A model generated the notes under the pieces. That model saw only the letters and a list, made by a program, of their open reading frames with translations, was not told where the DNA came from and made no database searches. Source: Antedon mediterranea (taxonomy: Eukaryota; Animalia; Echinodermata). From it: a DNA stretch of 64,000 bases. Of this stretch, positions 206 to 37,100 are shown in pieces. Both the position numbers and the translations under genes were made by a program. Location: the NCBI RefSeq assembly GCF_964355755.1, contig NC_092677.1, positions 1,510,101-1,574,100 of the forward strand. Reading direction: 5' to 3'. The first letter of the stretch is position 1; every line of letters begins with the position of its first letter.

Positions 206-774
206 GAAGTTCCAAAAAAAGAGAATGATTGTAATTCAACTGGTCATGTTGTTGGAATGACGTTTGTTGGTGTGCTCATTGGATTCATTATAATTATGTT
301 TGATTGTGGTTTTTATCCTCAGCAAAATAAAGAAGTCACATGCACAGGTAAAGTATAATTCAGAAAGTAGAACCAAAAGCAAAAGTGCTGACTTGAAATG
401 ACCAAAGGTTTAATGAAATACCGCACACTTAAGTAATGGAAACTATTTAAACATGAAATTTGATTTTAAAGGTAGGCCTACCTACATCAAAAAATACCAA
501 CCAATCAGGGGTAAGGATGTTACTTCAACTCTAATTATTCAATTTCACTCATCATAATTATTATTATTACTATTGTCACCAATATATCAATAAAGGTTTA
601 CACGATAATTCTTTTTTTGCATGCACTAAACTGTTGTATTATTTTTAGCAGCAGGCGTATATGACTTATACTGAAGAGACAGATAAAGAAACAAACCACA
701 CATACCAAGATTTACAGAAGAAAGACGATAATCAAGCTGTATATGTAAATGAAGCAAAAAAAGACAAAAAATAA
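206..774 (+). pseudogene. 3' part of Ig-receptor unit 0 (TM exon, microexon, Tyr tail); probably a pseudogene
   Basis: TM exon (about 206-347) is homologous to the other units but has a 4-nt insertion (ttcattataattatgttt) that shifts the frame. Microexon 472-510 carries a GGCCTA insertion. Tail exon 649-774 reads QQAYMTYTEETDKETNHTYQDLQKKDDNQAVYVNEAKKDKK*. The upstream exons lie outside the window. Confidence 0.7.
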
Positions 775-1461: not shown

Positions 1462-4441
1462 ATGATGACTTTTTGTTTGCTGCTATTTGTTCTTGTATTT
1501 GGTAAGTACCAGGCTTTAATGTTTTGTGGGTGCTACTATAAGTTAAGTCTTTGTCTATGTAGAGCATCTTGTGTATATGTTTGTCTTATATGTTCTAGTG
1601 CAGTATATGGAGAGCCATCTCGATAGTGCTTTGCACTCATGGCAATCCTCAGGGTGCTGCACCGCTGTGTTGTCATGTATTGTTGTGCCTGAAAATTGAA
1701 TAAAATAAAAATAAAAAATAAAATTAACATTTGATTTTCAATTTTTTTTATAAAACCATATACATGTAGGCCTATAGTACATTTCCGTCATTGTTTGAGA
1801 TACAAATAATCATCATGCATGTTATTTTCGAATTTATAGAGGTCGTTCTAACTTAGGTTAACAATTATAAAAGTAAACTATTAATTACAAAATCTTAAAA
1901 TTTGCCGGACCACTGGTTTGGTTTGTGTGAGAGCCCAGAACAGAAAACACAATAGAAAGAATGCATTCACTAGAATGTTGATTTTTTTAGTATCTTTCTG
2001 ATTTTAATACTTTGCAGCATAATGTTATCAATTAATCAAATTTATTCACCTCCCTTAGGAGAAACATATAAAAACTGTACAGCAAAATAAAACACATTAA
2101 AATAAAGATTCACACGAATCAATAGATTAAAATGGTTTTAACAAGTTAAATAAAGTGTCAAAATCATTGTGAAATAGGGCAGACTTGTTATATTTCAAAA
2201 TCAAGTTAAGTAAATTTATTTAGTTTCAGATGCAAGTGCACAAACACAAGTGACAGTGAATGCTGCTACAGCAAAAGTTGATGAAGCTGCAACAATGATG
2301 TGTACTTATACACTTGTACCAAACGATTCATTGCTGCAATTGGGTTGGACAAACGCAGATGACAGTGGTCAAGCAGTAGGAATTGCTCTTGTGATTTCTA
2401 CAGGAAAAACAAGCAATGGTCGATACAGTTTGTCCAATGATAATCTTATAATAACTGATGTTGAAAGAGGTGACGCAGGCAACTATCGTTGTGTTGTTGG
2501 CACCACTGGTGGGAATGGTGCTGAAAACTTTGCTAATCTCACAGTCTATTGTGAGTATATGTTTTGTAGCTAAAATGATTTTTTTTATATTTATTTAAAT
2601 ATGTTTATTTTAGGTACTGTACATTACATGTCAGTTAGTACAGTAATTTTAATTTCATCTTTGAATCATAAGTTTCACAATCAGAAAAAAAATGAAACCA
2701 ATAATTTGGATAAAAAGTAAAAAAGTATCATCATCTATTGTGATATTCAATGCATTTAAATTTTTCTGTTTCAGTGGTATGATGGTAATTAACTTTCCAA
2801 TTTATGTGTTTGCTTTTTAGAGTATAATGTATATAATTTACAAATTTAATCTAAACAATGTATATGATATTTAAAGAGAAAGGCAATTATAATGCAGGGA
2901 TGTTATTTACATCAGAACCAAATGAATATTCAATATCCTATGTGTTATATTGTTTGAGTACTACTAAACATTAGCAATTACTGTATTAGAATTGGTACAG
3001 TAGGCATGTCAATTGTGTAATTCTAAACAAATGATAATCCAAGAACTGTACAGTATAATTTTGCCATTTCAGATCTTGAAGTACCAGATTTAAAACCAGT
3101 AGAATTGCATGCCACATTAAATGAAACAGCGATATTTACATGTACTGAACTTGAAGGTTTACCAACACCAATTACTATCACATGGATCAAAGATGGCAAT
3201 CCACTTGGTGTTTCTAATACAGACAAGTATCCAACTTCTGATGCAACATTAACGATTAATGACGTTGATGAGAGAGATGAGGGAGCTTATCAGTGTAGAG
3301 CAGAGAATGCTGCTTACATGGGAGAGGAGGGAAAACTTAGTAATACTGCCACACTGTCAATAGGTTTGTGGGAATAAACATTTTAATAAATAATATATTT
3401 TATTAGCATCATTGTATAAGTATTTTCTGCATGTCAAATTATAAATGAAATATTCATATTACAGTATATTATGTCATGTGGTAACAAAAATAAAGCACAG
3501 CGAAAACAGCGATAACTGAAAGTTTTAGTTTATTAAAGTCATTTTTATAAAATGAACGCATGACGTGTCGGATTATTGCTTGTTTATTTTCTATTTCTTT
3601 AGCATTGGCGACAACTTCTTTTATATCCAGTAAGTCAACTACACGTAGGTTTTGTTTGTTTGCACTGCATTGTAAATTTCCGGGATTTTGAATTTGCGAA
3701 AAAAAAGGATAGCAATTAAAAGGGATATCCCGGCCCCATCCCCATGATCTGTATCATGCCTTAAAAGGGAAAATAATGTCAACACTACATTGTTGTAAAC
3801 ATGTTTAAAACACGGCATGGTAACACGATCCTTCTGTATTATTTGTTCAGTTTTAAGTACAGAAGTTCCAAAGAGAGAGAATGATTGTAATTCAACTGGT
3901 CTTGTTGTTGGAATGACGTTTGTTGGTGTGCTCATTGGATTCATTCTCTGTTTGATTGTGATTTTTATCATCAGCAAAATAAGGAAATCACATGCACAGG
4001 TAAAGTATAATTCAGAACGTAGAACCAAAAGCAAAAGTGTAGACTTAATGACCAAAGGTTTAATGAAATACCGCACACTTAAGTAATAGAAACTATTTTA
4101 ACATTAAATATGAGGTTTTATTTTGAAGGTACCGACATCGAAAAACACCAACCAATCAGGGGTAAGGATGTTACTTCAACTTTAAGTATTCAATTTCACT
4201 CGTCGTCGTCATCACCATCATTATTATCACTATTGCCACCAATATATCAATAAAGGTTTACACGATTTTCATTCTTTTTTTTTGCATGCACTAAACTTTT
4301 GTATTTTTTTAGCTGCAGGCGTATATGACTTATACTGGAGAGACAGATAAAGAAACAAACCACACATACCAAGATTTACAGAAGAAAGAAGATAATCAAG
4401 CTGTATATGTAAATGTTAAAGCAAAAAAGGACAAAAAATAA
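1462..4441 (+). CDS. Ig-superfamily receptor unit 1 (leader-V[class A]-I-stalk-TM-cyt-Tyr tail), apparently intact
   Basis: Predicted exons: 1462-1501 (MMTFCLLLFVLVF), 2224/2230-2550 (V: C..W..DAGNYRC), 3073-3363 (I-set: FTC..W..DEGAYQC), 3603-3629, 3851-3999 ([27 protein letters not shown]), 4129-4161, 4313-4441 (stop). All have GT/AG boundaries and compatible phases (1,1,1,1,0,0). Confidence 0.85.
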
Positions 4442-5882: not shown

Positions 5883-8482
5883 ATGAAGAGTGTTTCCTTC
5901 TTGTTATTGTTTATTCTATATTTACGACGTAAGTACAATTCACCAAACTAACCCTATAATTAAGTATTCTCTAAGAGTTAATCAACTTCTTTGTTGATTT
6001 GAACAGTTATTAACTAAATATATTTTGCTTGTAAATTAAATATATCTCTATTTATGGTAGGTTTATGGCACACCAGGATGGACATACATAGTTATGTCCG
6101 TCCTAGCGTGCCATATAGGTTCAAACGCTAGATATAGGTTAGCTAAATACTGCATGAGGCCTGTGACATCATGACATACTCATGTTGCTTTACTGTCGCT
6201 GTGCTACTAATTGTGCAAATAGTTATATATACATATATATATATATATACATTTTCAGTATTTTTTGTTTGTATTGTTTGCATTTCCTATAATTTTGTTT
6301 CCAGAAATGACTAAAAAACCTTTCTTGACATCAACACAATGTTTAATAAATGGTAGTAGACATACAGCACATGTTTATAGCAAGCTATCTTTAAAAATGA
6401 GTAACAAGCTTTATCTTTTATAACACCAAATCAACGTAGGCCTACCCTAAACTCCAAAAACTTGCAATAAAAGTGCACAATATGCAGTATCTATAATAAT
6501 TACTGTACAGTTATTGTTTAGTTTTAGGTACACATGCACAAACTACGTCTGTGACAGCGGGTGGTGATGCAGTTAAAGTTGGTGAGGTTGCGACGATGAC
6601 GTGTAGTTACACACTTCCAAATGGAGAAGTATTGGATCGACTGGTTTGGTTCAGAGCTGATGCTGATGGTACTCCAGTATTAGGCGACCCTCTCGTGTCT
6701 ATAGTTGAAACAAGCAATGGTCGTTACAGCTTATCTAATGACAAGGATCTTATGATAAGAACTGTTGAAGTAAATGATGCAGGCAACTATCTGTGTAGAA
6801 TTGTAACACAAAATGTTCAAACTGCTGAAGACTATGATGAACTTATAGTTCAATGTGAGTTTGTCATTCCTTTGTTGTTCTTTTTCTAGTGAAAGTTAAA
6901 TACATAAACTCTGTTGGACAATCTTCAAATTACAATAAATAATTATAATCTAAAATTATCAAAATGTAAATAAAGCTGACGTTTTTATGGTATTACATTT
7001 AATAGTCAAAGTTTCTTTCCACTGCAGATCTTGATACACCCGTTGTGACTCCAGCCCAATTGTCTGTCAATATTGGTGAAACAGCACTGTTTTCTACTGT
7101 ACATGTTGGATTCCCAACACCAATTACCATCACATGGATCAAAGATGGCAAAGAACTTGATGTTTCTGATATAGAAAAGTATCCGTCTTCGGATGCAACA
7201 TTAACGATTAAGAATGTAAATGAGATAGATGCAGGGAGTTATAAGTGTATAGCAGAGAATGCTGTTTACATGGGAGAAGAAGGAAAACGTAGTAATACTG
7301 CCACACTGTCAATAGGTTGGTTGAAAAATAAACTTTTTAACTGTTGATACAAACATATCATATTTTTGAATATTTTCTGTAAGGACCAAACTGCCTGTCA
7401 TAATTAATTGGTTAATATTGCTATTATGTTATGTGGTAATAAAAATGAAGCACAGCTACACAACAAAAACTGCTTGAAGTTGGGGAAAATGTTTGGAAGA
7501 AAGAAAGGGAAATGTTTTAATACTGAACTTTTGCAAACGATAAGGTTTCTTATTTAGTTTTTTTTTTTAGTTATAGCAGGCTTTATGTGATATGACGTGT
7601 TTTAATAATATTACAATATTTCTCTATTTCTTTAGCACTGACGACAACTTCTTTTATATCCAGTAAGTCAACTACATGAAGGTTCTGTTTGTTTGCATTG
7701 TATTTTAAATTTCCGGGATTTTGCATTTGCGAAAAGAAAAAAAAAAGATAGAAATGGAAAGGATATCCCCCGCTCCACCCCAGGATCTGTATGAGTGCTT
7801 AAAAGGAAAATAAGTATGACCTTTGTATATTTGTCAACACTATATTATTGTAAAAAATTAAATTAAAACACATTGTAACACTATATCCTTCTGTATTATT
7901 TGTTCAGTTTTAAGTACAGAAGTTCCAAAGAAAGAGAATGATTGTAATTCAACTGGTCTTGTTGTTGGAATGGCGTTTGTTGGTGTGCTTATTGGATTCA
8001 TTATCTGTTTGCTTGTGGGTTTTATCATCAGCAAAATAAGGAAGTCACATGTACAGGTAAAGTATAATTCAGAAAGTAGAACCAGAAGCAAAAGTTTAGA
8101 CTTAAAAATAATGACCAAAGGTTTAATATACCGCATACTTAAGTAATGGAAACTATTTTAACATTAAATATGATATTTTATTTTAAAGGTACCTACATCG
8201 AAAAACACCAACCAATCAGGGGTAAGGATGTTACTTTAATTTAATTATTCAATTTCACTCGTCGTCCTCACTATTGTCACCAATATATCAATAAAGGTTT
8301 ACACGATTTTCATTCTTCTTTTTGCATGCACTAAACTGTTGTATTTTGTTTAGCAGCAGGAGTATATGACTTATACTGGAGAGACAGATAAAGAAACCAA
8401 CCACACATACCAAGATTTACAGAAGAAAGACGATAATCAAGCTGTATATGTAAATGTTAAAGCAAAAAAGGACAACAAATAA
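5883..8482 (+). CDS. Ig-superfamily receptor unit 2 (V class C), apparently intact
   Basis: Exons 5883-5928 (MKSVSFLLLFILYLR), 6522/6528-6854 (V), 7028-7315 (I-set lacking the B-strand Cys), 7636-7662, 7908-8056 (TM), 8189-8221, 8354-8482 (QQEYMTY..TYQDL..VYVNV..*). Phases are compatible. Confidence 0.85.
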
Positions 8483-9497: not shown

Positions 9498-12400
9498 ATG
9501 GAGGCAAGATGTACAAGTGCGATAGTCTTCTAATTGTTAAACTTTGTGGTTGTAAGTACAAATATTAAAAATATCTTCTTTTTTTTTCACAAAATGACGC
9601 AATCGTAAATCGTTATTTGTTTAATTTAGTTTCAGATACAAGTGCACAAACACCAGTGCCAATGGATGCTGCTAAAGCCAAAGAGTTTGAAAATGTAACG
9701 ATGGTGTGCACTTATACATTTCTGAAAGGAGATTTATTGTTGCAACTGGCTTGGTCAAAAACTGATGACAATGGTCAACAAAATAGGACCTGCTCTTGTG
9801 GTTTCTACAGGACTAACAACCAATGGTCGATACAGTTTGTCCAATAATAATCTTATAATAACTGATGTTGAACGAGGTGATACAGGCAACTATCGTTGTG
9901 CTTTTAGCACTAATCTTGGAAATTCTGGTGAAAACTTTGCAGCACTCACAGTCAATTGTGAGTATAATTATATACTGTGCAGAATTTGTATTTAAAACAA
10001 TAAATCTCTTAATTAAAGTAATCTTTTAACCTAAAATGTTGATTTCCGACTTTTAAAGTTACTTTAGAATTTAGTTCAGTAATTAATTAGTAATAATAAT
10101 AATAACAGTACAGTAATTTTGAATTCAAATGAACATCAGCTAGTTTAAGCGGATGCTAGTCAAGTCGCCCCATCGCAAAGTCGCCCCTTACAAAGTCGCC
10201 CCTTACACAGTCGCCCCATCGCAAAGTCGCCCCAAAACAAAGTCGCCCCGACACAGTCGCCCCATCGCAAAGTCGCCCCAACGCAAAGTCGCCCCATCGC
10301 AAAGTCGCCCTAACACAAAGTCGCCCCATCGCAAAGTCGCCCCAAAACGTTAAAAGTGCGTAAAATGTCGCAATGATACACAAAATAACACGGAACGTGT
10401 AGGCATAAAAGGGGAAGCCCCGCCATGTAGTCTCAGGTCACACGATCATCCCCCATCATCATGAGGGAGGAAGCCCCCAACTAATCACTCCGCGCGCGGT
10501 CGCACTAACGTGCTAGCTCACCACCAGAGGGAAACCCCCGTAATTACTCCGCCGTTGTCGCACTACACAACGCACCATCTGAAGATGGGGAAACCCCGCC
10601 GGAGTTTTACGATATCAGTCGCGTTCGAAATCGGTCGAGTTTAATTTTGGTCGCGATAAAATGATGTTATACGATCTAGATTATTTTTACTTTGGTCGAT
10701 AAATATTTATTATTATTAGGCCTATATATTATATTAATAATTGATTTTTGTTTCTATTTTACAGGTCTATGATGAGAAAGATGTGTGCCTTCAAAAATGA
10801 CAATTTGTAAACATAGTTTAAGATTATAGTATTATTCAGCATAATGTCATTTAACAGTACATAATTATTTAAATGTGAAATATTTTATAGGGAACGTAGG
10901 CTACGTCTGTGACTTTTATTTTATATGCAACAAATTACGTAAAACAATTTATTTATAAACATTCAGTTTACTAATAGTATTACAATGAACATTGATTATA
11001 AGCCTGGAAAGGCAATCCCATCATTATATCCATTATAAAATTGCATCATCACCACTATATGTCGTAAATGATGACGTGCGTGTGTGTATGTATTCGTCGT
11101 ACGTCCGTGTACGTACTATTCCGTGCATCTTCACTGTCTTGTTTAATTTATTTAATAAAATAATATATTTAATTAAATAAACACCCGATATGAGGATATT
11201 TATTAGGCATGAGATAATTAGAATGTTCTATAACCAAAAGGGTTGAAAAGAATTTCTTCAGTAAAATGATCATTTTGCTGTTGAATAAAAAGCGACTCGC
11301 AATCTGAAACATTCTCTGAAACCAATCGGAGCAAGCTGCGCCTTCTGGTATCTGTTTCCTCACAGTGCTACGACGTCTTTCTGCTGCCCGTCGGGGATTC
11401 CCCTTTTTAAAAAACACGCACACGATACGATGGTTTTCCATGGTCAAAATGTAGCGTACGATCATATCGGCGATGAAATCCTTTTTTTTTATTTCTTCAT
11501 TTTGAAAAGTCATAATAAAATTAAATAACAATAGACACATAACTTGTCAATAAATGCAAAGTGATCAATAAGTAGCCTATAACACTATTGTCTTACAACT
11601 ACTGTAAATCTATACGAAGGCCTATTACACATTTATACACTTATTATATTATCATAAAAAATGAGCTGGTAGGTTGAAGAAAGATTCGTAATTGTGGCTC
11701 TGGTAACTAATTTTAAAATCATATTAAATTAACATTTTCGAAACTATAAATCAGGGATAATCTTTTTAGAACTTTCAAACAAGGGACTGTTTTTTTAATG
11801 ATTTCTAAAAAGCACATCACTTCATTAAAACCTGTAAAATAAAAATAAAAAATACAAATTATGTATATAATAGGATAAACATTATAATGTAGGCCTAGGC
11901 CTATACGACATTTAGCGCGACCAAAGTAACAACGCAATCGATATCAAACGCAACCGATATGATTAAAACAGCGTACTACTAGTAATAGCGGCGGCGCTTC
12001 ATAGTCATACCGAAATAAAACCGTGGGCGACTTTGCGATAGGGCGACTTTGCGTTGGGGCGACTTTGCGATGGGTCGACTTTGCGATGGGGCGACTTTGT
12101 AATGGGGCGACTTTGCGATGGGGCGACTGTGCCGGGGCGACTTTGTTTTGGGGCGACTTTGCGATGGGGCGACTTTGTATTGGGCGACTTTGTATGGGGC
12201 GACTTTGCGATGGGGCGACTTGACTGGATCCCGTTTAAGCATATACAGGTCAAATAGCAATGTAAGTTAACAACAGTGAAAACTGATGAGACAAATTTTC
12301 CTATGCATTAATGACGTCTTAGCCAATTTTAGACGACGGCTGTATATATGGTAAGCGCATATCGGAAGTATTATATCGCAATTGTCCTGATATCATATAG

Positions 12401-13870
12401 TATGTTCATCCCTAATACATTGTCAAACTATGGTTACCGGTAAATTCTTAATACGCAGATCTTGAAACACCCGTTGTGACTCCAACCAAATTGTCTGCAA
12501 AGATGGATGATACAGCAGAGTTTTCTACTGAACCTGTTGGATTCCCAACACCGATTACCATCACATGGATCAAAGATGACGTCACACTTGATATTTCTGA
12601 CATGCAAAAGTGTCCGCCTTCTGATGCAACATTGAAGATTAATAATGTAAATGAAACGGATGCAGGAGTGTATAAGTGTAGTGCAGAGAATGGTGCTTAT
12701 AGTGGAGAAGAAGGAAAACTTAGTAATACTGCCACACTGTCGATAGGTTGGTTGGAAAATAAACATTTTAAATGTTGATACAAAAATATTATATTTTATT
12801 GATATTTTCTGTAAGGACTAAATTGCCTGTCATAATTAATTGGTCCTATTATGCTATGTAGTAATGAATCTAAAGCACTGCAGCTACACAACAAAAACTG
12901 GAAGTTGGGGGAAATGTTTGGGAAAAAGAAGGGAAATGTTTTAATACTGAACTTTTACATTGGTGCGATACGATAAGGTTTCTTATTTTTTTTTTTTAAT
13001 TATAAAAGGCTTTTTGTGATATGACGTGTTTTACTAATATTGCTTGTTTCTCTATTCTTTTAGCATTAACGACAACATCTTTTATATTCAGTAAGTCAAC
13101 TACACGTAGGTTCTGTTTGTTTGCATTGTATTGTAAATTTCCAGGTTTTTGCTTTTGCGAAAAGAAAAAATGATAGAAATGGAAAGGGATATCCCCCTCC
13201 ATCCCCATGATCTGTATCACTGCTTAAAAGGGACAATAATGATGTCCTTTGTATATTCAACATTACATTATTGTAAACATGTTTAAAACACATGGAAACA
13301 CTAATCCTTCTGTTTTATTTGTTCAGTTTTAAGTAAAGAAGAAGTTCCAAAGAGAGAGAATGATTGTAATTCAACTGGTCTTGTTGTTGGAATGACGTTT
13401 GTTGGTGTGCTCATTGGATTCATTATATGTTTGATTGTGGTTTTTATCATCAGCAAAATAAGTAAGTCACATGCACAGGTAAAGTATAATTCAGACAGTA
13501 GAACCAAAATAAAAAGTGTAGCCTTAAAATGACAAATAGTTTAATGAAATACCGCAACTTAAGTAATGGAAACTATTTTAACATTAAATATGATGTTTTA
13601 TTTTGAAGGTACCTACATCGAAAAAAACCAACCAATCAGGAGTGTGGATGTTACATCAACATTCATCATTTATTATTATTACTATTGTTACCAATATATC
13701 AATAAAGGTTTACACGATTTTCATTCTTCTTTATTTTTTTTTTAGCAGCAGGCGTATGTGACTTATACTGGTGAGACATATAAAGAAACAAACCACAGAA
13801 GATTTACAGAAGAAAGATGATAATCAAGCTGTGTATGTAAATGTTAAAGCTAAAAAGGACAACAAATAAA
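9498..13870 (+). pseudogene. Ig-receptor unit 3 (V class A), pseudogene
   Basis: The leader at 9498 hits TAA after a 1-nt deletion relative to the intact copy at 38708. The V exon (about 9630-9957) has a +1 frameshift near 9780 (split ORFs 9617 and 9765). The I-set exon (about 12460-12747), stalk and TM are present. The tail exon has a frameshifting deletion before the YQDL motif. A 2-kb TIR element sits in intron 2. Confidence 0.8.
10151..12232. mobile_element. Non-autonomous Mutator/foldback-like DNA transposon with tandem-repeat TIRs
   Basis: About 200-bp arrays of about 16-bp units (caaagtcgcccc+nnnn) at 10151-10350 and their reverse complement at about 12025-12231. The termini are ggatgctagtcaagtcgcccc / ggggcgacttgactggatcc. 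The element is flanked by direct repeat gtttaagc (10143-10150, 12233-12240; 8-9 bp TSD). No transposase was recognised inside. Confidence 0.8.
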
Positions 13871-16673: not shown

Positions 16674-16719
16674 GTAAGGATACCATACAACTTTCAATAC
16701 TAATTTTCACTCTTCATTA

Positions 16720-17498: not shown

Positions 17499-20400
17499 AT
17501 GGTGATATGTGAATGTGCACTAATTTTTCTGATTTTCCAAAGCGACTGTAAGTAGAAACTTAAATGTCATGCATGTTATTAGTATGGTCCTACTATTATT
17601 TTAACATAGACTATAAGACTGAAATGGCTATGGACGGTGACTGAATCTATCCAGCCTAGCATGTGCCCGCACACTCCGAAATCATGGAGTTTATGAAGAA
17701 GCTTAGAGTGGCTGACGCGATCAAACGCCTTTTTCCAGTCCAGAAAAATAGCATCAATAAGAGGATTGGCAATATCAAGGGTTTTAGCCCATTCATGGTA
17801 TAAAGAAGTAGCTTGAGTAACACATGAGTGGCCTGGATAAAATCCATGTTGAACAGGGCTAATAAAACCATTACGCTGCAAGTGTTGGAGGAGATAATCT
17901 GCCACAAAGCGCTCAAGTACTTTACCCACGACTGAACAAAGTGAAATAGGTCTATAATTCGATATTTCGTTTCTGTTACCAGATTTGAATATCGGAACGA
18001 CATTGGCTAGCTTCCAATCCAAAGGAACTCTACCCTGATCAAGAGATAATTTAAAGATCCTACACAGGATAGGAGAAATGATCGGGGCAGCCAAGCTGAT
18101 CCATTTGTTGTGATCGGTGAACGTGCAAAAAAATCATACCTTTTGTTGTTACACTATAACAGTATTATTATTATTAATATAATTATATTAATTAATTTAA
18201 AATGTCATCGAAGCGTGCGCATTGGCGATAAAGTAAAATACCTTATTTCATTGTGGGGAAGCCCTGAGTTCAGAGATCGGTTGGAAGTGAAAAACTGGCG
18301 TAAAAGCACCGGCAACAAAATGTCTGTGTTCAACGAGATGGCGGACACGAGAAGATGGGCCATCCTCATAAAGAAGGATTTAATATCCCAAACAAAATTG
18401 AAGGGGTCGTCGTATAAAGCGGCGAAAGACCGAGTAAATAAATCTGGAGCCGGTGCAAGTACGGGATTTGAACATTTTTCTGCCATATGATATTTTAGGT
18501 CATAGACCAAATATAAACCCAAACCCCAAAATGATCGGCTGGTTGGTATGCCCGACAACCAATCGATAATGCCGAGCACAAGTGTTCGGTCTAGGCCTGT
18601 AACTCCTAAACCAACCACTAATACTTTTAATAACAACGAAGGTAGGTCTATGCGTGCGTTAGAGTTTGGTCAATCGCCAGCGAGTGACATCATATCCGTT
18701 TGTAACGCAACTTCGTTGCAGTGAATCTGAACACTTTGCTCTTACGATGCTCATTAAAATATGACCGTGGCTGTGATACGAAAGCATAATTCCGTAGGTC
18801 TGAACATGAGTTTGGTTTAACACAAGTAGGTAAATTTGTGAGCTCTTGGTTTAACACATACGGTAGGTAAATATATGGGCCCTTTGAGAATAAACTTGCA
18901 ATACTTTGACAATACTGTAAATACCTATTAACTAGTTTTGGTCCTCATTTGAATCGAACATTTCTTACTTTGAATGTTCGTACTGTTAGATGTAATATAA
19001 AAATATATACAAATAAACTTTATTACTGAGATTGTGGTTATGCTCTACTTCTGTTAGATATATAAACACATTATTATATACAAATAAACTTTATACTGAC
19101 AGTTCCTTCTCAACGTTTGTATTAATTAATAATTACCAATAATATAAACGTCGTAGTGGTGTATCGTGACATGTACTTTAATATTTCAATCGATTATGAC
19201 AGTGACAGTTTTAACAAAGTATTAAATCGCAAATGTTTTACTGTATTTAGAGGTATATTATTTATAGGCCTATAAAACATGAACAAAATATTTCGTTACT
19301 GAGTGGATAAAGAATATATTTAAAAATTGTTCCTCTTTGTACCTATCCGCTTTCCCGTCCCTCAACCCTAATGTTACATACAAAACACAAATTGGGTTTC
19401 TTTAAGTGAGTCCAAATTTGGACTCATTTTGTTTCTCCTTCGGAAGTAATTCCCAGGGTGCTAATTTTAGTTGACTACATAAATCATCGTGTCTATTTAT
19501 TCGTTTCTGTAAACGACAATGTATTGTAGTCCTGTGGTACGTACATTTGAAATCGCCAGTTTTGTTACGCTGAAATTACTGTGTATTCGAGAACCATCTA
19601 GTATACATAAGTAGGCCTACATTTCCGTCATTATTTGAAATACAAATAATACAATCATGCGTTTAATGTTATTTCCGTATTATAGAGGTGGTTCAAACTT
19701 AAGTCGACAATTAAATAAAAAACTAATAATTTAAAATTAAATTCCCGTTGTCTGTGTTTGCGCGGGTGTGTCGATTTGTTATCCTGCCGGACCACATAGT
19801 TTGGTTTGTGAAACCAGAACAGAAAACGATAATAGAGAGAATGCACATTCACTAGAATTGTATTTTGTTTTTTTCGTCTTTCTGATTTTAACACTTTGCA
19901 GCACAATGTTATATTTCAAAAGCAAGTAACGTAGCGTATTGTAGTTTCAGATACAAGTGCCCAAACACAAGTGTCAGTGGATGCTGGTACAGCGAGAGAG
20001 TTTGACAATGTAACAATGGTGTGTACTCCATCATTTCTGTCAGGAGATTCATTGGTTCAACTGGCTTGGACAAAAGCTGATGAGAATGGTAAACAAGAAG
20101 GAAGTGCTCTTGTTATTTCTCCAGGATTAACATCCAATGGTCGTTACAGTTTGTCCAATAATAATCTTATAATAACTGATGTTGAACGAGGTGATGCAAG
20201 CAACTACCGTTGTGCTGTTAGCACCAATCTTGCAAATCCTGGTGAAAACTTTGCAGAACTCGCAGTCAATTGTGAGTACAGTATAGTAGAATTTTATGAA
20301 TATGCAATTATTTCTTCAAATACAATAAATAAGTGTGAGGATGATACTGTATTTTAGACATTATAATTTGTTTATGTTTAATGTAAGAACATTTGGACAT

Positions 20401-22377
20401 ACAAGCTACAGTAATTGTTTTGTGTTAACTTATTTTAAACAAGTAGTGTATTTTGTTATTGATTTCATTTGTCAGTTAATTGTGAGTATAAAGTAAATTA
20501 TGATGAATATTTGTAATTTGCACATTTCTTCAAATTATAATAAATTTTTATCAGAATTTCAAAGCGAGATGATGATGCTTAGAAATATACTTATACAGTA
20601 CTGTATTAAAAGCTTAGACTTATCAATGTTGTTGAAAAAAATAATTATTTGAAAATGTTTTGTCTTGAATGTTTAGACATACAATATTGTACTTGTCGAT
20701 AAATAGTATTGTGTAGCAATTGAAACAATTAATCACAAATTATTATCAAATTTATCATAAAAATAAAGTTGTGTTTGTGGTAATACATGAGTATTTTAAA
20801 AATTGTTATGTAAGTTTTCCATGAACAGATATTGACAACCCAGGTTTGAAGCTAATGTCTAACGATGATGAAGCAGCAACATTTGAATGTACTAAACCTG
20901 ACGGATTCCCAACACCAATTAGCATCACATGGATCAAAGATGACGTCACACTTGATGTGTCTGATACACAAAAGTATCCGTCTTCTGATGCAACATTAAC
21001 AATTAATGACGTTGATGAAACAGATGAGGGAGTTTATCAGTGTAGAGCAGAGAATGCTGCTTACAGTGGAACAGAAAGAAAACTTAGTAACACTGTTACC
21101 CTCATCACATTAGGTTGGTACGATTGGAATCAAATAGTTTCATAACTGTTAATTGATACAATGAATACATACTATATATAAACAGACATTTCATTCTTTT
21201 GGATCGTGTTTTCTCTACCACAAATAATTTTTCTTTTGTTTCTACACTGATATGGATAGCACTGGTGAGCTAACACAACAAAAATGGAACGCTTTAGTTG
21301 TTTGTTTTTTCTTATTATTATGCAGGTGTTTTGATATGAACGCTTGATACGTTTCGATAATAATGCTTTTTTATTTATTTAGAATTTACGAGTATTTCTA
21401 TATCCAGTAAAGCCTGGTTTCCATAAAATCGCTACACCGTGTCGCCGACTGCTGTCGCCGACAGAGCGTAGCGATTCTATGGAAACGCTATAATTTATCG
21501 GGGATCTAGTACGCGAGCGCTAAATATTCTTTGGTACACGCGTATACGACTCATCGCCGACAAAATCGGCAAAGTTGAACATGGTTGAACTTTGCCGATT
21601 TGTCAGCGATGAATTGGGGAGACCTCCCCGATGCGCGTCGGTGACATTTGCGCGTGTAGCGATTTCAATGGAAACGGTGTAGCGATTTTATGGAAACCAG
21701 GCTTTAGTCAACTATAAGTACGTTGATTTTTATTATAAAATTGTAAATTTCCGGGTTTCAACGAAAAGAATAAAAATAAATGAATGAAAATAAATACAAT
21801 CCGGGTTTGGTTCCAAAATAGACAAGCATGAAAATGGGACAAATCGATATGAGCATCGGTGTGTCTTAAAAGCAACAACGACAATTAGTATAAATCAGAA
21901 AAAAAAAAAGAAACTACGGTATATACAAAGGTTCCCTGGATCTGTACTGCTTACGCTCTGCATATGTATCACTTACACTTTAATATTATAAAAGGGTTAA
22001 TTTCATACAATTATGAAAACACTGACACAGTACTGATAATTGTTCAGTTTTAAGTACAGAAGTTCCAAAGAGTGAGGGCGTGTGTAATTCAACTGATTTT
22101 GTTGTTGGAATGACGTTTGTTGGTGTGCTCATTGGATTCATTCTCTGTTTGCTTGTGGGTTTTATCATCAGCAAAATAAGGAAGTCACATGAACAGGTAA
22201 AGTATAATTCTGAAAGCAAAAGTGTAGACTTAAATAGACCAAAGTGTGAATGAAATACCGCATACTTAAGTAATAGAAACTATTTTAACATTAAATATGA
22301 TGGTTTATTTTGAAGGTACCTACATCGAAAAACACCAACCAATCAGGGGTAAGGATGCTATACGTCACTTTCACTCG

Positions 22378-22411
<34 letters not shown>

Positions 22412-22613
22412 TTATTATTACTATTGTCACCAATATATCAATAAAGGTTTTACACGTTTTTCATTCTTTTTTATTTATTTTTAGCAGCAGGAGTATATGA
22501 CTTATACTGGAGAGACAGATAAAGAAACCAACCACACATACCAAGATTTACAGAAGAAAGACGATAATCAAGCTGTATATGTAAATGTTAAAGCAAAGAG
22601 GGACAACAAATAA
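17499..22613 (+). CDS. Ig-superfamily receptor unit 5 (V class A); coding exons intact from V onward, leader assignment uncertain
   Basis: Exons 19945/19951-20271 (V), 20829-21113 (I-set), 21383-21406 (24-nt stalk), 22048-22196 (TM), 22316-22348, 22485-22613 (tail). The nearest upstream phase-1 leader is 17499-17547 (MVICECALIFLIFQSD), separated from V by TE fragments. Confidence 0.65.
17641..18094 (-). mobile_element. Non-LTR (CR1/L2-like) reverse transcriptase fragment
   Basis: The ORF contains P.DWK.ANVVPIFK.G.....NYRPISL, QHGF, SC.TQ and D..KAFDRVSH..LL.KL motifs of LINE RT. Homology to the host paralog (31321-31330) breaks at about 17641. Confidence 0.85.
18200..18520 (+). mobile_element. 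Degenerate Myb/SANT-like (trihelix) DNA-binding ORF, probably a PIF/Harbinger transposon remnant
   Basis: KYLISLWG..F..RL...N.M.VFNEMA...YKAAKDRVNKSGAG...FEHF..I(*)DILGHRP resembles the Myb/SANT-like domain of Harbinger accessory proteins. Recognised by eye only. Confidence 0.55.
18806..19601 (+). mobile_element. 3' part of non-autonomous Helitron
   Basis: Near-identical to about 34794-36427 without the nested insertion. It ends CTAG|T, and the terminal hairpin has been deleted between accatct repeats. Confidence 0.7.
21411..21703. mobile_element. PIF/Harbinger-like MITE
   Basis: Perfect about 30-bp TIRs agcctggtttccataaaatcgctacaccgt / acggtgtagcgattttatggaaaccaggct with TAA and TTA flanks. 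Paralogs have an uninterrupted ccagtaagtcaact here. Confidence 0.8.
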
Positions 22614-23786
22614 TGCATCTTTAATTGTTAATGAAAAATCATAGTTTGTAAATTGTTGATTTTAATAATATAACTCAATCATTTATGGGTAAAACTGATC
22701 AATTAATTAATTAATTTAAAATAACAAGAAAAAGTGTTAATTCTGCAATTAGTTATAAAAAACCATACACTTTACTTAGTGCCATTGCCTACCAATGGTA
22801 TATAGCAATGTGTGATGTAAAGATGAAAACCATAGTGTAAATAACAAGATACATTAATTATGCGAATTCTATGTCTTGGTCATTTTTTTCGTACTGGAAT
22901 TAAAATTTGCTTGTAGTTGAATCGTTGAATAGAAAAATAAGGATTTCATACACCAATATGCGTTTAAGTTCATATTATTAGAGGAGTGTTCTTTAATTTA
23001 ATTTCTTGATTCGATTGCTTTGTTTGGTTGCTCGTTGCCATTTTTCATAACTGCATTCGTTCAAAATTATTTTGAAACGAATTTCATCGTCTTTCGTTCA
23101 AATGTAGCCTAATGACGCCTGACGCCCTCTACCTCACTCTATGTAGCTTTCATTTTCTTACAAAAGTGCTACACACTCTTTAGTCTTCACGCTCATTAGA
23201 CATTACAAGCAAGTATCGTTACAGGTTGGTTTATTTTTGTTAATATACTTAATACATAACTTGTCAAACTACTTTTTATTATTTAGCAAATTAATTGTCA
23301 CTAATAAAAACGGTAAGGTACTCAATCGATATTTGACATGGACGATACTGTATGGAGGAAGTAGACATAATATCAAAGTATGAATCCACACTCATAACAA
23401 TAACAGGAACAATCATTATTTCAATATACATTATATACAATAGTGGAATAGTTTTGCTGTATAGGCCAACTGCGTCGTATTTAAGATTCCTGCTTTAGAT
23501 TTGTGGAGATGAAGACGGATATGTCAATATGAAATGTGATTTTTTTTTCAACTTTGTGTTTGTAAAAAGACAGTTCTTTAGAAATATAGGAAATATTTTT
23601 ATTCACAAAAAATTAATCTAAACATTGGGCCACCATACATTATGGAGGAAATAAACAAAACATTTAATTCAATTCGCATTCTGACAATACAAGCGATCAG
23701 TGTCCTGTATAGTATATACTGAGAGACAAGAGTGAATGTATCATTTGGGATTTTCAGATTGTTTAGGCATGATCTTAACAGAAGTA

Positions 23787-25731
23787 ATGGCGATATGTGA
23801 GTGTGCACTCATTTTTCTGATTTTCCAAAGCGACTGTAAGTAGAAACTTAGAATATAATTGGCGTAATCAATTGTCATGCATGTTTATTAGTAGGACCCT
23901 ACTATGGTTTCAAGACTGAAATGGCTATGGAGTTTGACGGCGTAGTAACCAATTTTTATTGTATTGTATTGTTTGTATTAATTGATTTGTTTTATACAAA
24001 TACATGAATACTCATTCATTTTGTGTATATAGTTATAAATGGTCAAACTCATGTTGTCAATGTGCAAGATGCTACTGTTAAATTAGGTGAAGATGCTATT
24101 ATCACCTGTGATTACACACTCACTGGTTCAAGAACCTTTCTTTCTGCTCAATGGTACAATAGCAATTCAGACGAAAACCTTCTTGTTAATACTGCAGTGT
24201 CACATTCTAATGGTAGATATACAGTTGATACCACACAAACTGGTACAGCTACTCTCACCATTGCAACCTCAGTGTTGTCTGATGATGGATACTTTAGGTG
24301 TAGAATTGTTGATTCAACTACTGTTTCTTGGGAAAACAACGGAAATCTTACTGTTCAATGTAAGTATGTAATAAATCCACGAATGGTATACTGTAGATTT
24401 AAGTCATTTAAAAATAGGCAATCATCATTTTAATATAAAGACAATTGATTTTGTCAATACAGATCTGGAAACCCCCATTTTGAAGTCGGACACATTATCT
24501 GTCATGATAAATGACACCGCGACATTTACATGTACTCAACTTATCGGTGAACCAAAATCAATTACTGTCAGATGGACAAAGAATGATGCTACGCTAGATA
24601 TTTCTGATACAGACAAATATCCGTCTTCTAATTCAACATTAATAATTAATAAAGTAGATGAAATGGACGACGGAAGTTATCGGTGTGTAGCAGGGAATGC
24701 TGCTTACAGTGGAGATGAAGGAAAACCGAGTAATCCTCTTATACTCTCAGTAGGTTGGTTGCAATAACGCTGTTATAACTAATGATACAATAATATCATT
24801 ATTTTATTGATATCATAGGTATATTATATGGAACCAAATTAAGAGTCAATCATAATTATACAGAATATTCCAACAATATGTATTATGCGGTAACAGTTAC
24901 ACAGTTTAGTTGTAATAGGCCTTTTTACAATATAGCACAAATAATATTTAAAACCAATAGTTGCACTGACTATGTTTAAATAACATAATCATATACTTTC
25001 TATTTCCTTAGCATTGAGAACAACTTCTTCTACATCCAGTAGGTCAACTACACGTACGTTTCATTTGTTTGCATTGCACTAATAGTTTTCCATTTTTAGG
25101 CCCTATAATTTTGTGAATAAAAAATATGACCTTTGTATATTTGTTATGTCACAATCACTTGGTAACTCTGATTCTCCTGAATCTTGCGTACACAGAAGTT
25201 CCAAAGAGTGGTGAGGGCGTGTGTAATTCAACTGGTCTTGTTGTTGGAATGACGTTTGTTGGTGTGCTCATTGGATTCATTATCTGTTTGATTGTGGTTT
25301 TTATTATCAGAAAAATAGAGAAGTCAAAATCGCAGGTGAATTATAATTCAGAAAGTAGAAAAAAATAGTCGAAGGTTTAGTGAAATACCGTCACAATTAA
25401 TGGAAAATGTATTCAATTTACTTTTTGATGTTTTATTTTAAAGGCACCGACATCAACAAATGACAACCAATCAGGGGTAAGGATGCTATACTTCAACCTT
25501 AATTATTCGCTTTCACTTTGATCATTATCATCATTGTAACCAAAACACAATAAAGGTTTGCATGATTGTAATTCATCTTACTTTACTGTTGTATTTTTTT
25601 AGCAGCAGGCGTATATGACTTACACTGGAGAGACAGATAAAGAGGATAACCACACATACCAAGATTTACAGAAGAAAGACGATAATCAAGCTGTATATGT
25701 AAATGTTAAAGCAAAAAAAGACAAAAAATAA
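23787..25731 (+). CDS. Ig-superfamily receptor unit 6 (V class B), apparently intact
   Basis: Exons 23787-23835 (MAICECALIFLIFQSD), 24033-24359 (V), 24463-24753 (I-set), 25012-25038, 25196-25335 (TM), 25444-25476, 25603-25731 (tail). Phases are compatible and there are no stops. Confidence 0.85.
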
Positions 25732-30446: not shown

Positions 30447-30482
30447 CATACAACTTTCAATACTAATTTTCACTCGTCATTA

Positions 30483-30945: not shown

Positions 30946-31193
30946 GCTTCAAATTCCTCGGTAAATAGAGGGCGCATTATTTCGTAAGAAGACACTTTAC
31001 AAATAATGGGAAATGTGCTTGTTCACAAAAAAAGTAATATACAGTATCATGGAGGAAGTAAAAAAAAATGTAAATCAATTTGCATTCAGAACCATCAGTG
31101 TCCTGTATATACTATTGAGAGACAAGAGTGGAAGTATCATTTTGGATTTTCAGATTGTTAGGCGTGACCAGCATGTCCTTCTTAACAGAAGTA

Positions 31194-34100
31194 ATGTCGA
31201 TATGTGAGTGTGCACTAATTTTCCTGATTTTCCAAAGCGACTGTAAGTAGAAACTTAATTGTCATGGATGTATAGGGTCCTACTATTATTTCAACATAGA
31301 CTATAAGACTAGACTGGCTATGGACGGTGACGGCGTAACCAATTTTTATTGTATTGTTTGTATTAATTGATTTGTTTCATTAAATACATTGCCACTCATT
31401 CATTTTTGTGTATTTAGTTATAAATGGTCAAAATCCTGTTGTCAGTGTACAAGATACCACTGTTAAATTAGGTGAAGATGCTATTATCTCCTGTAGTTAC
31501 ACACTCAGTGGTACTAGTACTATACAGGCTGTTCAATGGTTCAATAGTAATTCAGATGGAGATGAGTTAGACATCCTTGTTAATACTGCAGATACAAATC
31601 CAAATGGTAGATATGCAGCTGATACCTCACAACCTGGAGTTACTACTCTTACCATTGCAAACACAGTGTTGTCTGATGATGGATACTATCTATGTAGAAT
31701 TGTTGATTCATCTCTTATCCCTGGTAATCAACATGGAAATCTTACTGTTCAGTGTAAGTATTAAAATGTGTCTCAATAACTATATTTTAAATATACTTTA
31801 AATAATGCTGTATAACACTACTACTAACACTAACAAGATAAGTATCTACTATATATTTTGAAAGAAAGACCATTTATTACAGATCTAGAAAACCCTGTTT
31901 TGGAATCCAACACATTATCTGTCATGATAAATGGCACCGCAACATTCACGTGTACTAAACTTATCGGCAAACCAACACCAATTACTGTCAGATGGACAAA
32001 AGAGAATGTTCCACTTGATGGTTCTGATGCAGACAAATATTCATATTCTGATGCAACATTAAATATTAATAAAGTTGATGAAATGGATGAAGGAAGTTAT
32101 CGTTGTGTAGCAGAGAATGCTGCTTACAGTGGAGATGAAGGAAAAGAAAGTAATCCTCTCAAACTTTCAGTGGGTTGTAAGTAAAATTTATTTATGTAGC
32201 TTTAACATGGATATATTATTATTATTCTGATACAGAAAAATATCCATCTTCTGATGCAACATTAATTATTAATAAAGTGAATGAAATGGATGAAGGGAGT
32301 TACCAGTGTGTAGCAGAGAATGCTGCTTATAGTGGAGATGAAGGAAAACGTACTAGTAATCCTCTCACTATCAGTTGGTTGGTTGCAATAACGTTTTTAT
32401 AACTAACGATACAATAATATCATATTTTATTGAGAGCATAGGTATATTTTATTGAACCAAACAGTCTATCATAATTAGACGGAATATTCCAACAATTATG
32501 TATTACTAGATGGTACGCTCGCTTCGCTCGCGTACCATCTAGGTCGTGCCCACAGATGGTTCTCGAATACATAATAATTTCAGCGTTAAAAAACTGGCGA
32601 TTTCAAATGTACGTAGGCTACCGCAGGACAATAATACATGTCGTTTACAGGAACGAATAAATAGACACTGTGATTTATGTACTCAACTAAAATTAGCACC
32701 CTGGGAATTACTTCCGAAAGAGAAACTTGTCACAAAATAAGACCAATTGTTTAAGTAAAATTTAAACAAACTTAAAGATGTATTGTCCCTTTGACTAATT
32801 CCAAAAAAATAAAAAATAATAGATTTCGAAAAAAGGTGGGTCATTTTGAAGTATCATAATAATTATTAACTATCACCAAAAATTTTTCGAAAAAAAAAAA
32901 ATTTAACTGAAATACAGACGGTTTTTTGTTTAAAAAATTACTTTGACTTCCAGTCAAAGTTTTCAATCAAAACATATCCCATAATGAAACGCGCCTGTTT
33001 GGCTACTCTGTATGCATAATCATAAAACTTCCTCATGATCTGTGTGAAAATACCTTCTTAACCGTGACAAGTTGTAAACAATCCTAATTTAGCATATGCA
33101 TAATGCGTACTCATGGTTTGAAATCTTTGTTTACTTTCGCTCATGACGATTTTCCAGATGAAATGTAATCAAACTAATTTACCTGTTAATTACGTAAACT
33201 TGTTGTTTTTGGCTCAAATTTTCGACTTAAAGTGAATAACTTTAATATTAATTTGATATGGCCACTTTAAATTTAGAATATTTTGACCTTCATTTTTTTG
33301 TGTTTCAAGGGACAATACATCTTTAATTTGTGTTTTGTATGTAACATTAGGGTTGAGGGATGGGGAAGAGGATGGGTGCAAAGAGGAACAATGTTAAAAT
33401 ATATTCTTTATCCATTTAGTAACGAAATATTAATTGCTTTCATGTTTTACAAATAATATACCACTAAACACAGTAAAACATTGCGATGTAATACTTTGTT
33501 GAAACTATCACCGTCCTAGTCGATTGAAATAGTACAGCACATGTAACGATACATCACTACGACGTGTATATGTTTATAATATAATGTAAAACAATTTGTG
33601 AAAACCACCTCTATTCGGGGAAAATCATAAATTCGATTTAATCGTCAATAAATATTAAATTATCTAACTCAACTTAATTAGTAGGCCTAATGGTTTTCAA
33701 TTGTTTCTTGAGCCAATTCATACTTAAGTTGGTTCCTACCCTACCCACCAAAGTTGTTCTGCGTTTAGGGCATGTGATGTACCGTAGGCCTATTCTTAGT
33801 ACAGGCTATATGTGACATTTATCCTATGTAACCTTGAAAAAATTCTAATAAAAGGTCTTTTGGTATTTTCTTGTAGCTTTAGGTGTGAATAAATACCAAA
33901 ACATTTTTGCAGCGTTCTAGTTGCTGCTCCTGGGTTTAAAAAGACAAATGTGGTGTCTACATCTATGGTTTAGTGGTCTCTACTGGTTTTACAACGCTAC
34001 TCATGCCAGTGAGGGAAAGGTGATGATGTGGGTGGTTTAACTGCAATAATAAAGATTTGTACATAATATACGGCGAGTGAAAACGCTAGCCCATTATCCG

Positions 34101-37100
34101 TTTAAAAAAAAATTATATCCAACATCTGCAGCACAGATTGAAAACAAAAATGGATCGAATTTCGAGTATACAGTACTGTACTTGCCTTTACGACGCCTGA
34201 GGGAATAGACACTTGTGAAACAGAGATTGGAATGTTCCATTCATCGCAAATCAATAATTTTTTAAAGAAAATCGGCCTGTCTTCAACATTATGATGCTGT
34301 ACTCTAGCTGTTCAACCAGTTTTCAGCTATCTATATATAAATTTACGTAAGGGCAAAATTCGATAAGTCTCGGTTAATTTATAGAATTTTTACTCGATGG
34401 TATATAAAGTTGGTTCATACTTTCGGTACTGATTTTAACCATCTGACATAACCCTGTTTACTAATTAAACTGAGTTAGGTAATTAGTTATTGACGAATAA
34501 AACGAATTTAGGTTCAACGATTTGCCCCAAATAGGGGTGTTTTCCGATCGTGGTATACACTGTCTAATGGATGTCCATCTTGAAAAATACCAGCCACAAA
34601 AATGCGAGGAGGCTTCGCATTTTCCTACCTCCTCCTACGATAATTGTTTTTAATAGCTGAAAACTGGTTGAACAGCTAGAGTACAGCATCATAATGTTGA
34701 AGAAAGGCCGATTTTCTTAAAAAAAATACTATTTTGATAGATTTAATATACGATTATACAAATGTATTGATTTGCGATGAATGGAACATCCCAGAGTTTG
34801 GTTTAACACAAGTAGGTAAATTTATGAGCCCTTGGTTTAACACATACGGTAGGTAAATATATGGGCCCTTTGAGAATAAACTTGCAATACTTTGACAATA
34901 CTGTAAATACTTATTAACTATTTTTGGTCGTCATTTGAATCGAACATTTCTTACTGTGAATGTTCATACTGTTAGATGTAATATAACAAGGCCAACAGCC
35001 ATTAAGTCGCGTGCTACAATGCATAGTGATACCGGACCGACAGACAGACCGACAGACCGACAGACAGACCGACCGACCGACATAGTGAACTATACTGACC
35101 GAAATTACTGAACATGTTTAAAAATGTTGAAATGTTTAAAAACATTAATTTTTTTTTAATTTACACGTGCGTAGCCTGTCACTTTCGACGTGCTCGTATA
35201 ACGTAATTTCGAGTTGAAAAGTAAGTCAAGAAAACAGAAATCGGGCAAAAAGTGTGCGCAATAACATTAACGCGCAGTGCGCGCGCAAAAATATGCGCAC
35301 TCATGGCAATTTTGTAAACGCTTAAAATTGCCTGAAATGTACTCTTATTTCATCGAAAATAAATTTTGAAAATGTTAAGCGCGCTTGCGCATGCGTTACA
35401 TGCGCTACGCACGTAATTGTATTGCCATATGATGATTTATGCCCTGAAATTTATGAGTACCAAATTTGATTTAATTGTGATTCATTGTTGTGAAGATATG
35501 ATTACAAACGTGATTTCGTTAAATCGTGCGTAGACCGCGTAATTTTTTATTGCGCACCGTGAAAACATAACCACATTGATTCCTGGCCATAAGGAATATA
35601 CTGTGAAAAATTGACCTAGCTAGATTAAACTGATATCAAGATAAGGTCAGAAAGCGATAAAACGCATAGTGATACCGGACCGACAGACAGACAGACAGAC
35701 AGACCGACAGACAGACCGACAGACAGACAGACAGACCGACCGACCGACATAGTGAACTATAGAGTCGCTTCCACGCGACTAAAAATATATACAAATAAAC
35801 TTTATTACTGAGATTGTGGTTAGGCTCTACTGATATATAAACACATTATTATATACAAATAAACTTTATACTGACCGTTCCTTCTCAACGTTTGTATTAA
35901 TTAATAATTACCAATAATATAAACGTCATAGTGGTGTATCATGACATGTACTTTGATATTTCAATCGATTATGACAGTGACAGTTTTAACAAAGTATTAA
36001 ATCGCAAATGTTTTACTTTATTTAGAGGTATATTATTTATAGGCCTATAAAACATATTTCGTTACTGAGTGGATAAAGAATATATTTAAAAATTGTTCCT
36101 CTTTGTACCTATCCGCTTTCCCATCCCTCAACCCTAATGTTACATACAAAACACAAATTGGGTTTCTTTAAATTAGTCCAAATAAAAAATTTGGACTCAT
36201 TTTGTGATAAGTTTCTCCTTCGGAAGTAATTCCCAGGGTGCTAATTTTAGTTGACTACATAAATCATCGTGTCTATTTATTCGTTTCTGTAAACGACAAT
36301 GTATTATAGTCCTGCGGTACGTACATTTGAAATCGCCAGTTTTGTTACGCTGAAATTACTGTGTATTCGAGAACCATCTGTGGGCACGACCTAGATGGTA
36401 CGCGAGCGAAGCGAGCGTACCATCTAGTTAAAAACAATTATCGTAGGAGGAGATAGGAAAATGCGAAGCCTCCTCGCATTTTTGTGGCGGGTATTTTTCA
36501 AGATGGACATCCATTAGACAGTGTATACCACGGTCGGAAAACACCCCTATTTGGGGGCAAATCGTTGAACCTAAATTCGTTTTAATCGTCAATAACTAAT
36601 TATCTAACTTAATTTAATTAGTAAACAGGGTTACATCAGGTGGTTAAAATCAGTACCGAAAGTACGAACCAACTTTATATACCATCGAGTAAAAATTCTA
36701 GAAGTAAGGCGCGAATTACCGAATTTTGCCCTTACGTAAATTTATATATAGATGCGGTAATGGACATAAAGCACAACTACACAGTTTAATTATAAAAGGC
36801 CTTTTTATAATATAGAACAAGACAATATATAAAACCAATAGATGCACTGACTATGTTTAAATAACATAATCATAAGTACTTTCTATTTCTTTAGCATTGA
36901 AAACACCTTCTTCTACATCCAGTAGGTCAACTACACGTACGTTTTGTTTGTTTGCATTGCACTAATTGTTTCCTATTTTTAGGTCATATAAGTTTGCGAA
37001 TAAAAAATATGACTATTGTATATTTGTTATGTCACAATCACATGGTAACTCTGATCCTCTTGATTTGTAAATCGTTCGTAAACAGAAGTTCCAAATAGTA

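Follow-up and report, generated by a model that had tools for sequence, protein, structure and literature searches.

According to the accessible text of the studies cited here, Ig-type receptors balanced by ITAM and ITIM tails are known from cnidarians, tunicates, and vertebrates; in the oyster, an Ig receptor with an ITAM has been described (PMC11999971). In its strict form, the ITAM consensus consists of two YxxL/I motifs separated by 6-8 residues (PMC5112662). Extended definitions allow spacers of x6-9 or x6-12 (10.1101/2022.03.04.482883, 10.1101/2022.03.25.485889, 10.1101/198986), and the Y934/Y949 ITAM of Drosophila Draper recruits the kinase Shark (10.1101/198986). ITAM-bearing Xenopus Ceacams retain YxN sites (PMC5112662), and the consensus ligand of the Grb2 SH2 domain is Tyr-x-Asn-hydrophobic (PMC3694890). 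A literature search by title and start of abstract, in which subscription journals were mostly uncovered, returned no description of a paired Ig receptor family from an echinoderm or crinoid; supplements of genome papers may list such crinoid receptor genes.

The window, that is, the whole stretch of 64,000 nucleotides analyzed here (GC content 33%), holds a tandem array of Ig-type receptor genes of the crinoid Antedon (Table 1). It carries 11 copies of a terminal exon encoding a short cytoplasmic tail, every one on the + strand. A preliminary description of this DNA had cited eight positions, each of which does carry a tail copy; three further copies lie at 13746, 48068, and 63411. Six of the 11 copies belong to genes in which the reading frame stays open across the joined transmembrane (TM), mini-, and tail exons (A, 4313; B, 8354; E, 22485; F, 25603; G, 37505; H, 44100). 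The other five (649, 13746, 48068, 49364, and 63411) are broken or orphaned: the TM exon preceding the copy at 649 is frameshifted by a 4-base insertion, for example, and the copy at 63411 contains two internal stops. The copy at 44100 is three codons shorter and stops at YVNVE. The earlier statement that the tail is almost unchanged thus holds for the copies at 4313, 8354, 22485, 25603, 37505, and 49364, but not for those at 649 and 44100.

The tail exon of gene A (4313-4441) is directly preceded by a polypyrimidine tract and an AG. It encodes LQAYMTYTGETDKETNHTYQDLQKKEDNQAVYVNVKAKKDKK followed by the stop codon, and both other forward frames are closed by stops. The amino acid sequence quoted previously was borne out apart from one position, as the copy at 4313 reads KKED and not KKDD. 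The tail acceptors (4311-4318 and others) are tandem and in frame, so that one or two residues are gained or lost at the start of the tail.

Table 1. Features of the receptor array; positions are those of the window
Feature	Position	Strand	Basis or remark
Tail copy ending YVNE (terminal Val lost)	649..774	+	Gene cut by window start; looks broken
Gene A leader (signal peptide) exon, coding part	1462..1501	+	ATG, hydrophobic run, GT donor
Gene A V-set Ig exon	2230..2550	+	Pfam ig/V-set; open, phase 1-1
Gene A I-set Ig exon	3073..3363	+	Pfam I-set, E 1.4e-13
Gene A 27-base Ser/Thr linker exon	3603..3629	+	Sequence
Gene A stalk (one Cys) and transmembrane exon	3851..3999	+	Second acceptor 3863; phase 0 end
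Gene A 11-codon cytoplasmic mini-exon (VPTSKNTNQSG)	4129..4161	+	AG/GT boundaries
Gene A terminal tail exon	4313..4441	+	Acceptor, splicing, selection, open frame
YMTY upstream tyrosine pair, kept as YxxY	4322..4333	+	Both Tyr invariant in aligned tails
YQDL-x9-YVNV, ITAM-like pair; second half is a putative Grb2-type YxN site	4367..4417	+	
Gene B, intact-looking	5883..8482	+	Open exons
Gene C, broken	9498..13869	+	V frameshift, altered mini-exon donor, 5-base deletion in tail 13746
Gene E	19951..22613	+	V, I, TM, mini, and tail (22485) exons open
Gene F, intact-looking, second V lineage	23768..25731	+	Tail 25603; 3' part corresponds to database protein P0002
Gene G, intact-looking	31173..37633	+	Tail 37505
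Gene H, leader-V-I-V-V-TM-mini-shortened tail	38708..44190	+	Tail 44100, ends YVNVE
Gene J, broken	45482..48193	+	I, TM, and tail (48068) exons frameshifted
Orphan tail copy without own TM exon	49364..49491	+	
Gene K, leader-V-I-Ig-like-EGF-TM	52086..63539	+	Stop just past TM; tail copy 63411

Gene A is composed, in this order, of leader, V-set domain, I-set domain, linker, stalk/TM segment, mini-exon, and tail, with at least six introns. Its leader nearly equals the N-terminus of protein P0001, which contains the 11-codon mini-exon as well. This 33-base in-frame exon (4129-4161) had been overlooked in the preliminary description, as had the YxxY pair in the upstream part of the tail, which is conserved equally. 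Splice joints were observed in two sequencing runs, X8 and X9. The V-to-I joint (2550>3073, GT..AG) was seen in X8, and contigs of both runs contain 27 linker-like letters between 3363 and 3851. The mini-exon joints were found in X9 (3997>4127, GT..AG, and 4159>4315), where one contig joins TM, mini-, and tail exons in frame, with two differing letters over 4315-4414. X8 contains the joint between TM and mini-exon and, in addition, a loose end running from the mini-exon into the tail in frame. Neither run is recorded as RNA; we call them RNA-like on account of the GT..AG joints and of the missing intron cover, which is zero in both runs in the bins 4018-4095 and 4252-4290. Because some of their letters deviate from gene A, the contigs show splicing of the family rather than expression of gene A itself, and their cover gives no ranking of expression. 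We conclude that the tail exon is a spliced, protein-coding part of this receptor family. The alternative that it is read in another frame or represents UTR is answered by this in-frame splicing, for the family and not for gene A alone.

Both X9 and X8 also revealed a second form, in which TM and tail are joined two bases out of frame (4000>4324). Since the same letters occur behind an acceptor in a DNA-like run, this form looks like an expressed paralog, from which a receptor lacking the tail is predicted in two organisms. At its upstream junction, the paralog is similar to P0018.

The remaining genes vary in completeness. Gene B has its leader at 5883, V exon at 6528-6854, I exon at 7028-7315, TM exon at 7920-8056, and mini-exon at 8189-8221. 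For gene E, no leader exon of its own was found in the window; an insertion with inverted-repeat ends (about 21410-21710) lies at the donor of its linker exon. Gene H is best read as one gene, because a single leader and a single TM exon are available for four phase 1-1 Ig exons, the joining of which we infer. The V-I-V-V set at 38708-44200 may represent a longer receptor or alternative use of V exons. The TM exon of gene K is of the array type, and P0163, a protein of Anneissia similar to gene K, differs from it in the TM segment and has a tyrosine tail; the 3' end of gene K may have been swapped. An LTR element resides in a gene K intron (53271-57638), with an 837-codon open frame from 54389 that gave zinc-knuckle and PNMA matches. 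Its two 507-base LTRs are 100% identical, and thus the insertion is recent. At 58954-62705 lies a minisatellite of 54 bases in 69.5 copies, the unit of which corresponds to the 3' end of the gene K EGF exon, splice donor included. The I domains of genes B (7028-7315) and C (12459-12746) lack the first canonical Cys; as this residue is missing from P0003 and P0012 too, its loss is a lineage trait. In two decayed gene copies (14966-16715 and 27651-30478), the TM exons are broken and near-identical to each other, and a tail exon is missing.

Database annotation of the window genes is limited to fragments or to names such as lachesin-, JAM-, or hemicentin-like. Three A. mediterranea models are encoded in the window letter for letter over long stretches, namely P0002 (3' part of gene F), P0095 (part of gene B), and P0031 (gene K). 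The window accordingly belongs to Antedon, most likely to this species, and its receptor genes are annotated in part only. In view of this agreement, we dropped the interpretation that P0001, P0003, and P0004 represent alleles, on another haplotype, of genes in the window; they are more likely paralogs located outside it.

The closest proteins belong to the crinoids Antedon mediterranea and Anneissia japonica. Of 31 proteins examined, 17 contain Y[EQ]D[LI] and a second tyrosine motif exactly nine residues on. They fall into 11 clusters, five from Antedon, one of which is the window's own gene F, and six from Anneissia. The nine-residue spacer is present in all 11 clusters, whereas the neighbouring spacer between YxxY and YxDL ranges from 8 to 11. 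The tails end in Y[VIM]NV in ten clusters and in YNTV in P0004. All four tail tyrosines are invariant across the two genera and so is, outside P0004, the Asn two positions after the last of them. The tail module is attached to dissimilar ectodomains, including those of the A33-like P0029 and the three-Ig protein P0010, and the Anneissia V domains form a separate clade (98/96). Several Anneissia members and a gene K-like protein apparently share one contig, which suggests an old cluster. Anneissia P0076, named adhesion GPCR-like, has an array-type V-I ectodomain at its N-terminus, either as a real fusion or through a merged model.

A profile of the TM-tail region found 14 proteins among 7,993 scored candidates, all of them from crinoids. 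In a profile search of 1.84 billion representatives, 138 of the best 150 proteins were new, and the 13 new ones that were looked up came without exception from Antedon or Anneissia; multi-Ig proteins dominated, the TM pattern occurred in one of the 138, and the tail pattern in none. Neither the TM-tail profile nor the best 150 of the representative search, both limited in reach, yielded a non-crinoid tail carrier, which weakly suggests that the tail module is limited to crinoids.

The tail gave no Pfam match. As claimed previously, the tyrosine pair of gene A has a spacer of nine residues and a final Val. Measured against the strict ITAM, the pair deviates in both respects, as the spacer exceeds 6-8 residues in all clusters (11/11) and every tail-bearing cluster has Val in place of the terminal Leu/Ile. 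The extended definitions accommodate nine residues, so the spacer, earlier termed non-canonical, is so relative to the strict form and lies within the ITAM definitions used for invertebrates. The terminal Leu/Ile belongs to the extended form, too. Only in Anneissia P0013, and there within an internal repeat, does a second motif end in Leu: the first pair of the repeated unit reads YEDL-x9-YEDL and conforms to the extended ITAM. Since the gene A pair departs from the strict form in both spacer and last residue, and from the extended form in its terminal Val, we class it by its sequence as ITAM-like and not as an ITAM. Tyr-x-Asn-hydrophobic, the Grb2 SH2 ligand pattern, is present in ten of the 11 clusters, in line with the earlier assignment of YVNV as a putative Grb2-type site. 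In 100,000 residue shuffles of the tail exon, a broad ITAM-like pattern arose in 0.65% and YxN-hydrophobic in 0.28%, values that lend weak support, as the patterns were picked after the sequence had been seen.

The likeness of the tail copies, which the preliminary description took as conservation, does reflect a selected tail, but much of it is due to recent copying that includes the introns. Between genes A and B, the V exons are 68% and the I exons 81% identical, compared with 95% for the two introns flanking the mini-exon. Across genes A, B, E, F, and G, dS amounts to 0.81 for V and 0.46 for I, but is lower in the 3' exons, with 0.14 for TM and 0.20 for the tail. Thus, a 3' block from TM to tail, introns included, was recently copied between older ectodomain lineages. 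One might go further and ascribe the likeness to recent duplication alone, with the motifs being incidental, since intron identity around the tail reaches 92-95% in some gene pairs and the five broken or orphaned copies are nevertheless alike. The tail, however, has diverged by 17% at synonymous sites, similar to the introns (18-21%), but by 3.5% at non-synonymous sites, and the motif is kept in Anneissia although the remainder has diverged. The tail dN/dS is 0.19 (95% bootstrap 0.07-0.41, six copies), compared with 0.69 for V, 0.60 for I, and 0.79 for TM. When every variant is counted once in the five full-length intact tails, there are 10 synonymous variants on 24 sites versus 6 non-synonymous variants on 96 (p 2.5e-4). 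We conclude that the tail is under purifying selection. Duplication alone is already contradicted by these data, and we give this explanation hardly any credence. The V domains of the array genes differ by 9-78% at the protein level, and V dN/dS reaches 1.09 in one lineage (A, E, J).

Outside the window, P0001, which bears the tail, and P0008 of A. mediterranea share 104 of 108 residues in the V domain and 77 of 96 in the I domain, i.e., 96% versus 80% at the protein level. P0008 has a TM segment unlike that of P0001, and its own tail contains VTYAQV, LTYVEV, and TTYSSV, which correspond to two ITIMs and one ITSM. In P0068, a V domain of the F/G lineage (91/110 to P0004) is found on a P0008-type TM segment (35/47), in a model without tail. 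P0001, P0008, and P0068 lie on a record that equals in length the one carrying the window's own database proteins. They are automatic gene models, which can be chimeric in this family, as illustrated by P0007, which starts with a stray TM piece. An ITIM-type exon was not found within the window. Paired receptors are recognized by a near-identical ligand-binding-type domain on two genes, as seen for P0001/P0008 and P0004/P0068, and by opposite tail motifs, here putatively ITAM-like/YxN versus two ITIMs plus an ITSM. Such pairs are also marked by V-restricted gene conversion, on which the protein-level values of 96% (V) and 80% (I) for P0001/P0008 bear, and by a shared ligand with opposite cellular effects.

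In-frame splicing, purifying selection, motif conservation, and the match to the Grb2 consensus argue for the SH2-recruiting tail proposed in the preliminary description. That description had left activating versus inhibitory function unresolved; given the separate ITIM-bearing paralog, the balance now leans toward activation. The tail is probably the activating arm of a paired immune receptor family and would bind both a Syk/Shark-type kinase and Grb2. In such a system, binding of a ligand by the variable V domain would cluster the receptors, possibly aided by the stalk Cys and a GxxxG motif in the TM segment, and a Src-family kinase would phosphorylate the tail tyrosines. Y[EQ]DL-x9-Y[VIM]NV would then dock a tandem-SH2 kinase of the Syk/Shark type, and its second site (YxN) could also bind Grb2, leading to Ras/MAPK signalling. 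The outcome may be phagocytosis or another defence response, with ITIM paralogs that see the same ligands restraining the activating receptors.

The two tyrosine motifs might instead activate without acting as an ITAM, each as an independent docking site for a single SH2 domain, comparable to a built-in LAT-type adaptor in which YxN would bind Grb2 and Y[EQ]DL a partner of the Src family or of the hemITAM type. Leu/Ile is absent from the last position in all clusters, the Asn (+2) and Val (+3) do not vary and agree with both the Grb2 consensus and the LAT sites, and an atlas comparison gave the adaptors SCIMP and LST1 as weak leads (scores 0.80-0.85, with all scores below the 0.9 threshold). 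The fixed spacer of nine residues next to a variable one better suits a tandem-SH2 binder, however, and we consider independent docking unlikely. An inhibitory tail or a switch, in which the two tyrosines would recruit a SHP-type phosphatase, is less plausible still. The last tyrosine motif fits the ITIM [ILVS]xYxx[ILV] in five of the six Anneissia clusters, which counts against activation, and SHP2 accepts pY-I/V-x-V. None of the five Antedon clusters, on the other hand, has an ITIM or an ITSM (TxYxx[IV]) in the tail, position -2 being Ala or Pro, and textbook ITIMs plus an ITSM are already found on the separate paralog.

About equally improbable, in our judgement, is a role in adhesion or self-recognition (CTX/JAM-like or Hydractinia Alr-like), with the tyrosines serving YxxL endocytosis and growth signalling and not anti-microbial defence. 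The V-plus-I architecture would suit such a role, as would automatic names such as JAM-, CADM-, and A33-like, and Hydractinia Alr1A/E/F/G are described as carrying a common TM segment and ITAM-like tails under different ectodomains, as here. JAM/CTX proteins have a hydrophobic PDZ-type C-terminal end, whereas the crinoid tail ends in KDKK. The many broken copies, the genus-specific V clades, and the V dN/dS of 1.09 in one lineage rather resemble birth-and-death immune families.

Beyond the activating arm, we tentatively put forward a wider scheme that is possible but less well secured, in which recombination exchanges the V lineages of the crinoid family between two signalling cassettes, the activating Y[EQ]DL-x9-Y[VIM]NV and an inhibitory ITIM/ITSM one, with tailless forms in addition, and the activating cassette unites an ITAM with a LAT-type Grb2 site. 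If true, one hybrid ITAM/Grb2 motif would provide a receptor that does not need a separate adaptor.

In their available descriptions, the CEACAMs (CEACAM1/CEACAM3 and Xenopus Ceacams) resemble the crinoid family as clustered V-plus-constant Ig receptors, some with ITIM/ITSM and others with ITAM-like tails, whose V domains are nearly identical, and their ITAM-type tails contain YxN Grb2 sites (PMC5112662). The crinoid motif, however, lies within one exon, whereas the CEACAM YxxL is split by a phase 0 intron (PMC5112662), and the crinoid pair has an x9 spacer and a terminal Val. Orthology to CEACAM is not supported, as Robo2, titin, Robo1, and Dscam ranked above CEACAM1 in the profile comparison; the PDB matches were generic Ig domains.

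Hydractinia Alr, too, is a tandem cluster of IgSF genes in an invertebrate; it has V and I domains, shuffled exons, and ITAM/ITIM tails (10.1101/2022.03.04.482883; 10.1101/2022.03.25.485889), in which several members share one TM segment and tail under differing ectodomains (10.1101/2022.03.25.485889). The crinoid receptors differ in having no Fn3-like membrane-proximal domain (no Fn3 match); in gene A, only a nine-codon linker and a short stalk separate the I domain from the TM segment. Furthermore, the crinoid tails are more conserved than the ectodomains, whereas the Alr tails, as far as the accessible Alr reports go, are overall more divergent. The role in allorecognition is a feature of Hydractinia. 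Botryllus FcoR resembles the array in being an expanded Ig receptor family of an invertebrate deuterostome, whose members carry either ITIMs or tyrosine motifs of the activating kind (PMC12065747). In the accessible FcoR account, a sushi domain, hemITAMs, and pairing with fester are described (PMC12065747), none of which was seen in the crinoid array.

Draper shares the long-spacer ITAM(-like) pair, which in its case recruits a tandem-SH2 kinase for engulfment, but is a non-Ig protein encoded by a single gene, with a motif given as ending in I/L (10.1101/198986). YVNV resembles the sites of LAT in fitting the Grb2 SH2 consensus, in which Asn at +2 is essential (PMC2194190, PMC3694890). LAT is a separate adaptor without ectodomain, whereas the crinoid site is located on the receptor itself. 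Thus, the type of system is known, and what is apparently new is the crinoid family and its putative ITAM/Grb2 hybrid motif. Such a family would fill the echinoderm gap among deuterostomes, and its small motif would lend itself to tests of the coupling between a non-vertebrate receptor and Syk and Grb2.
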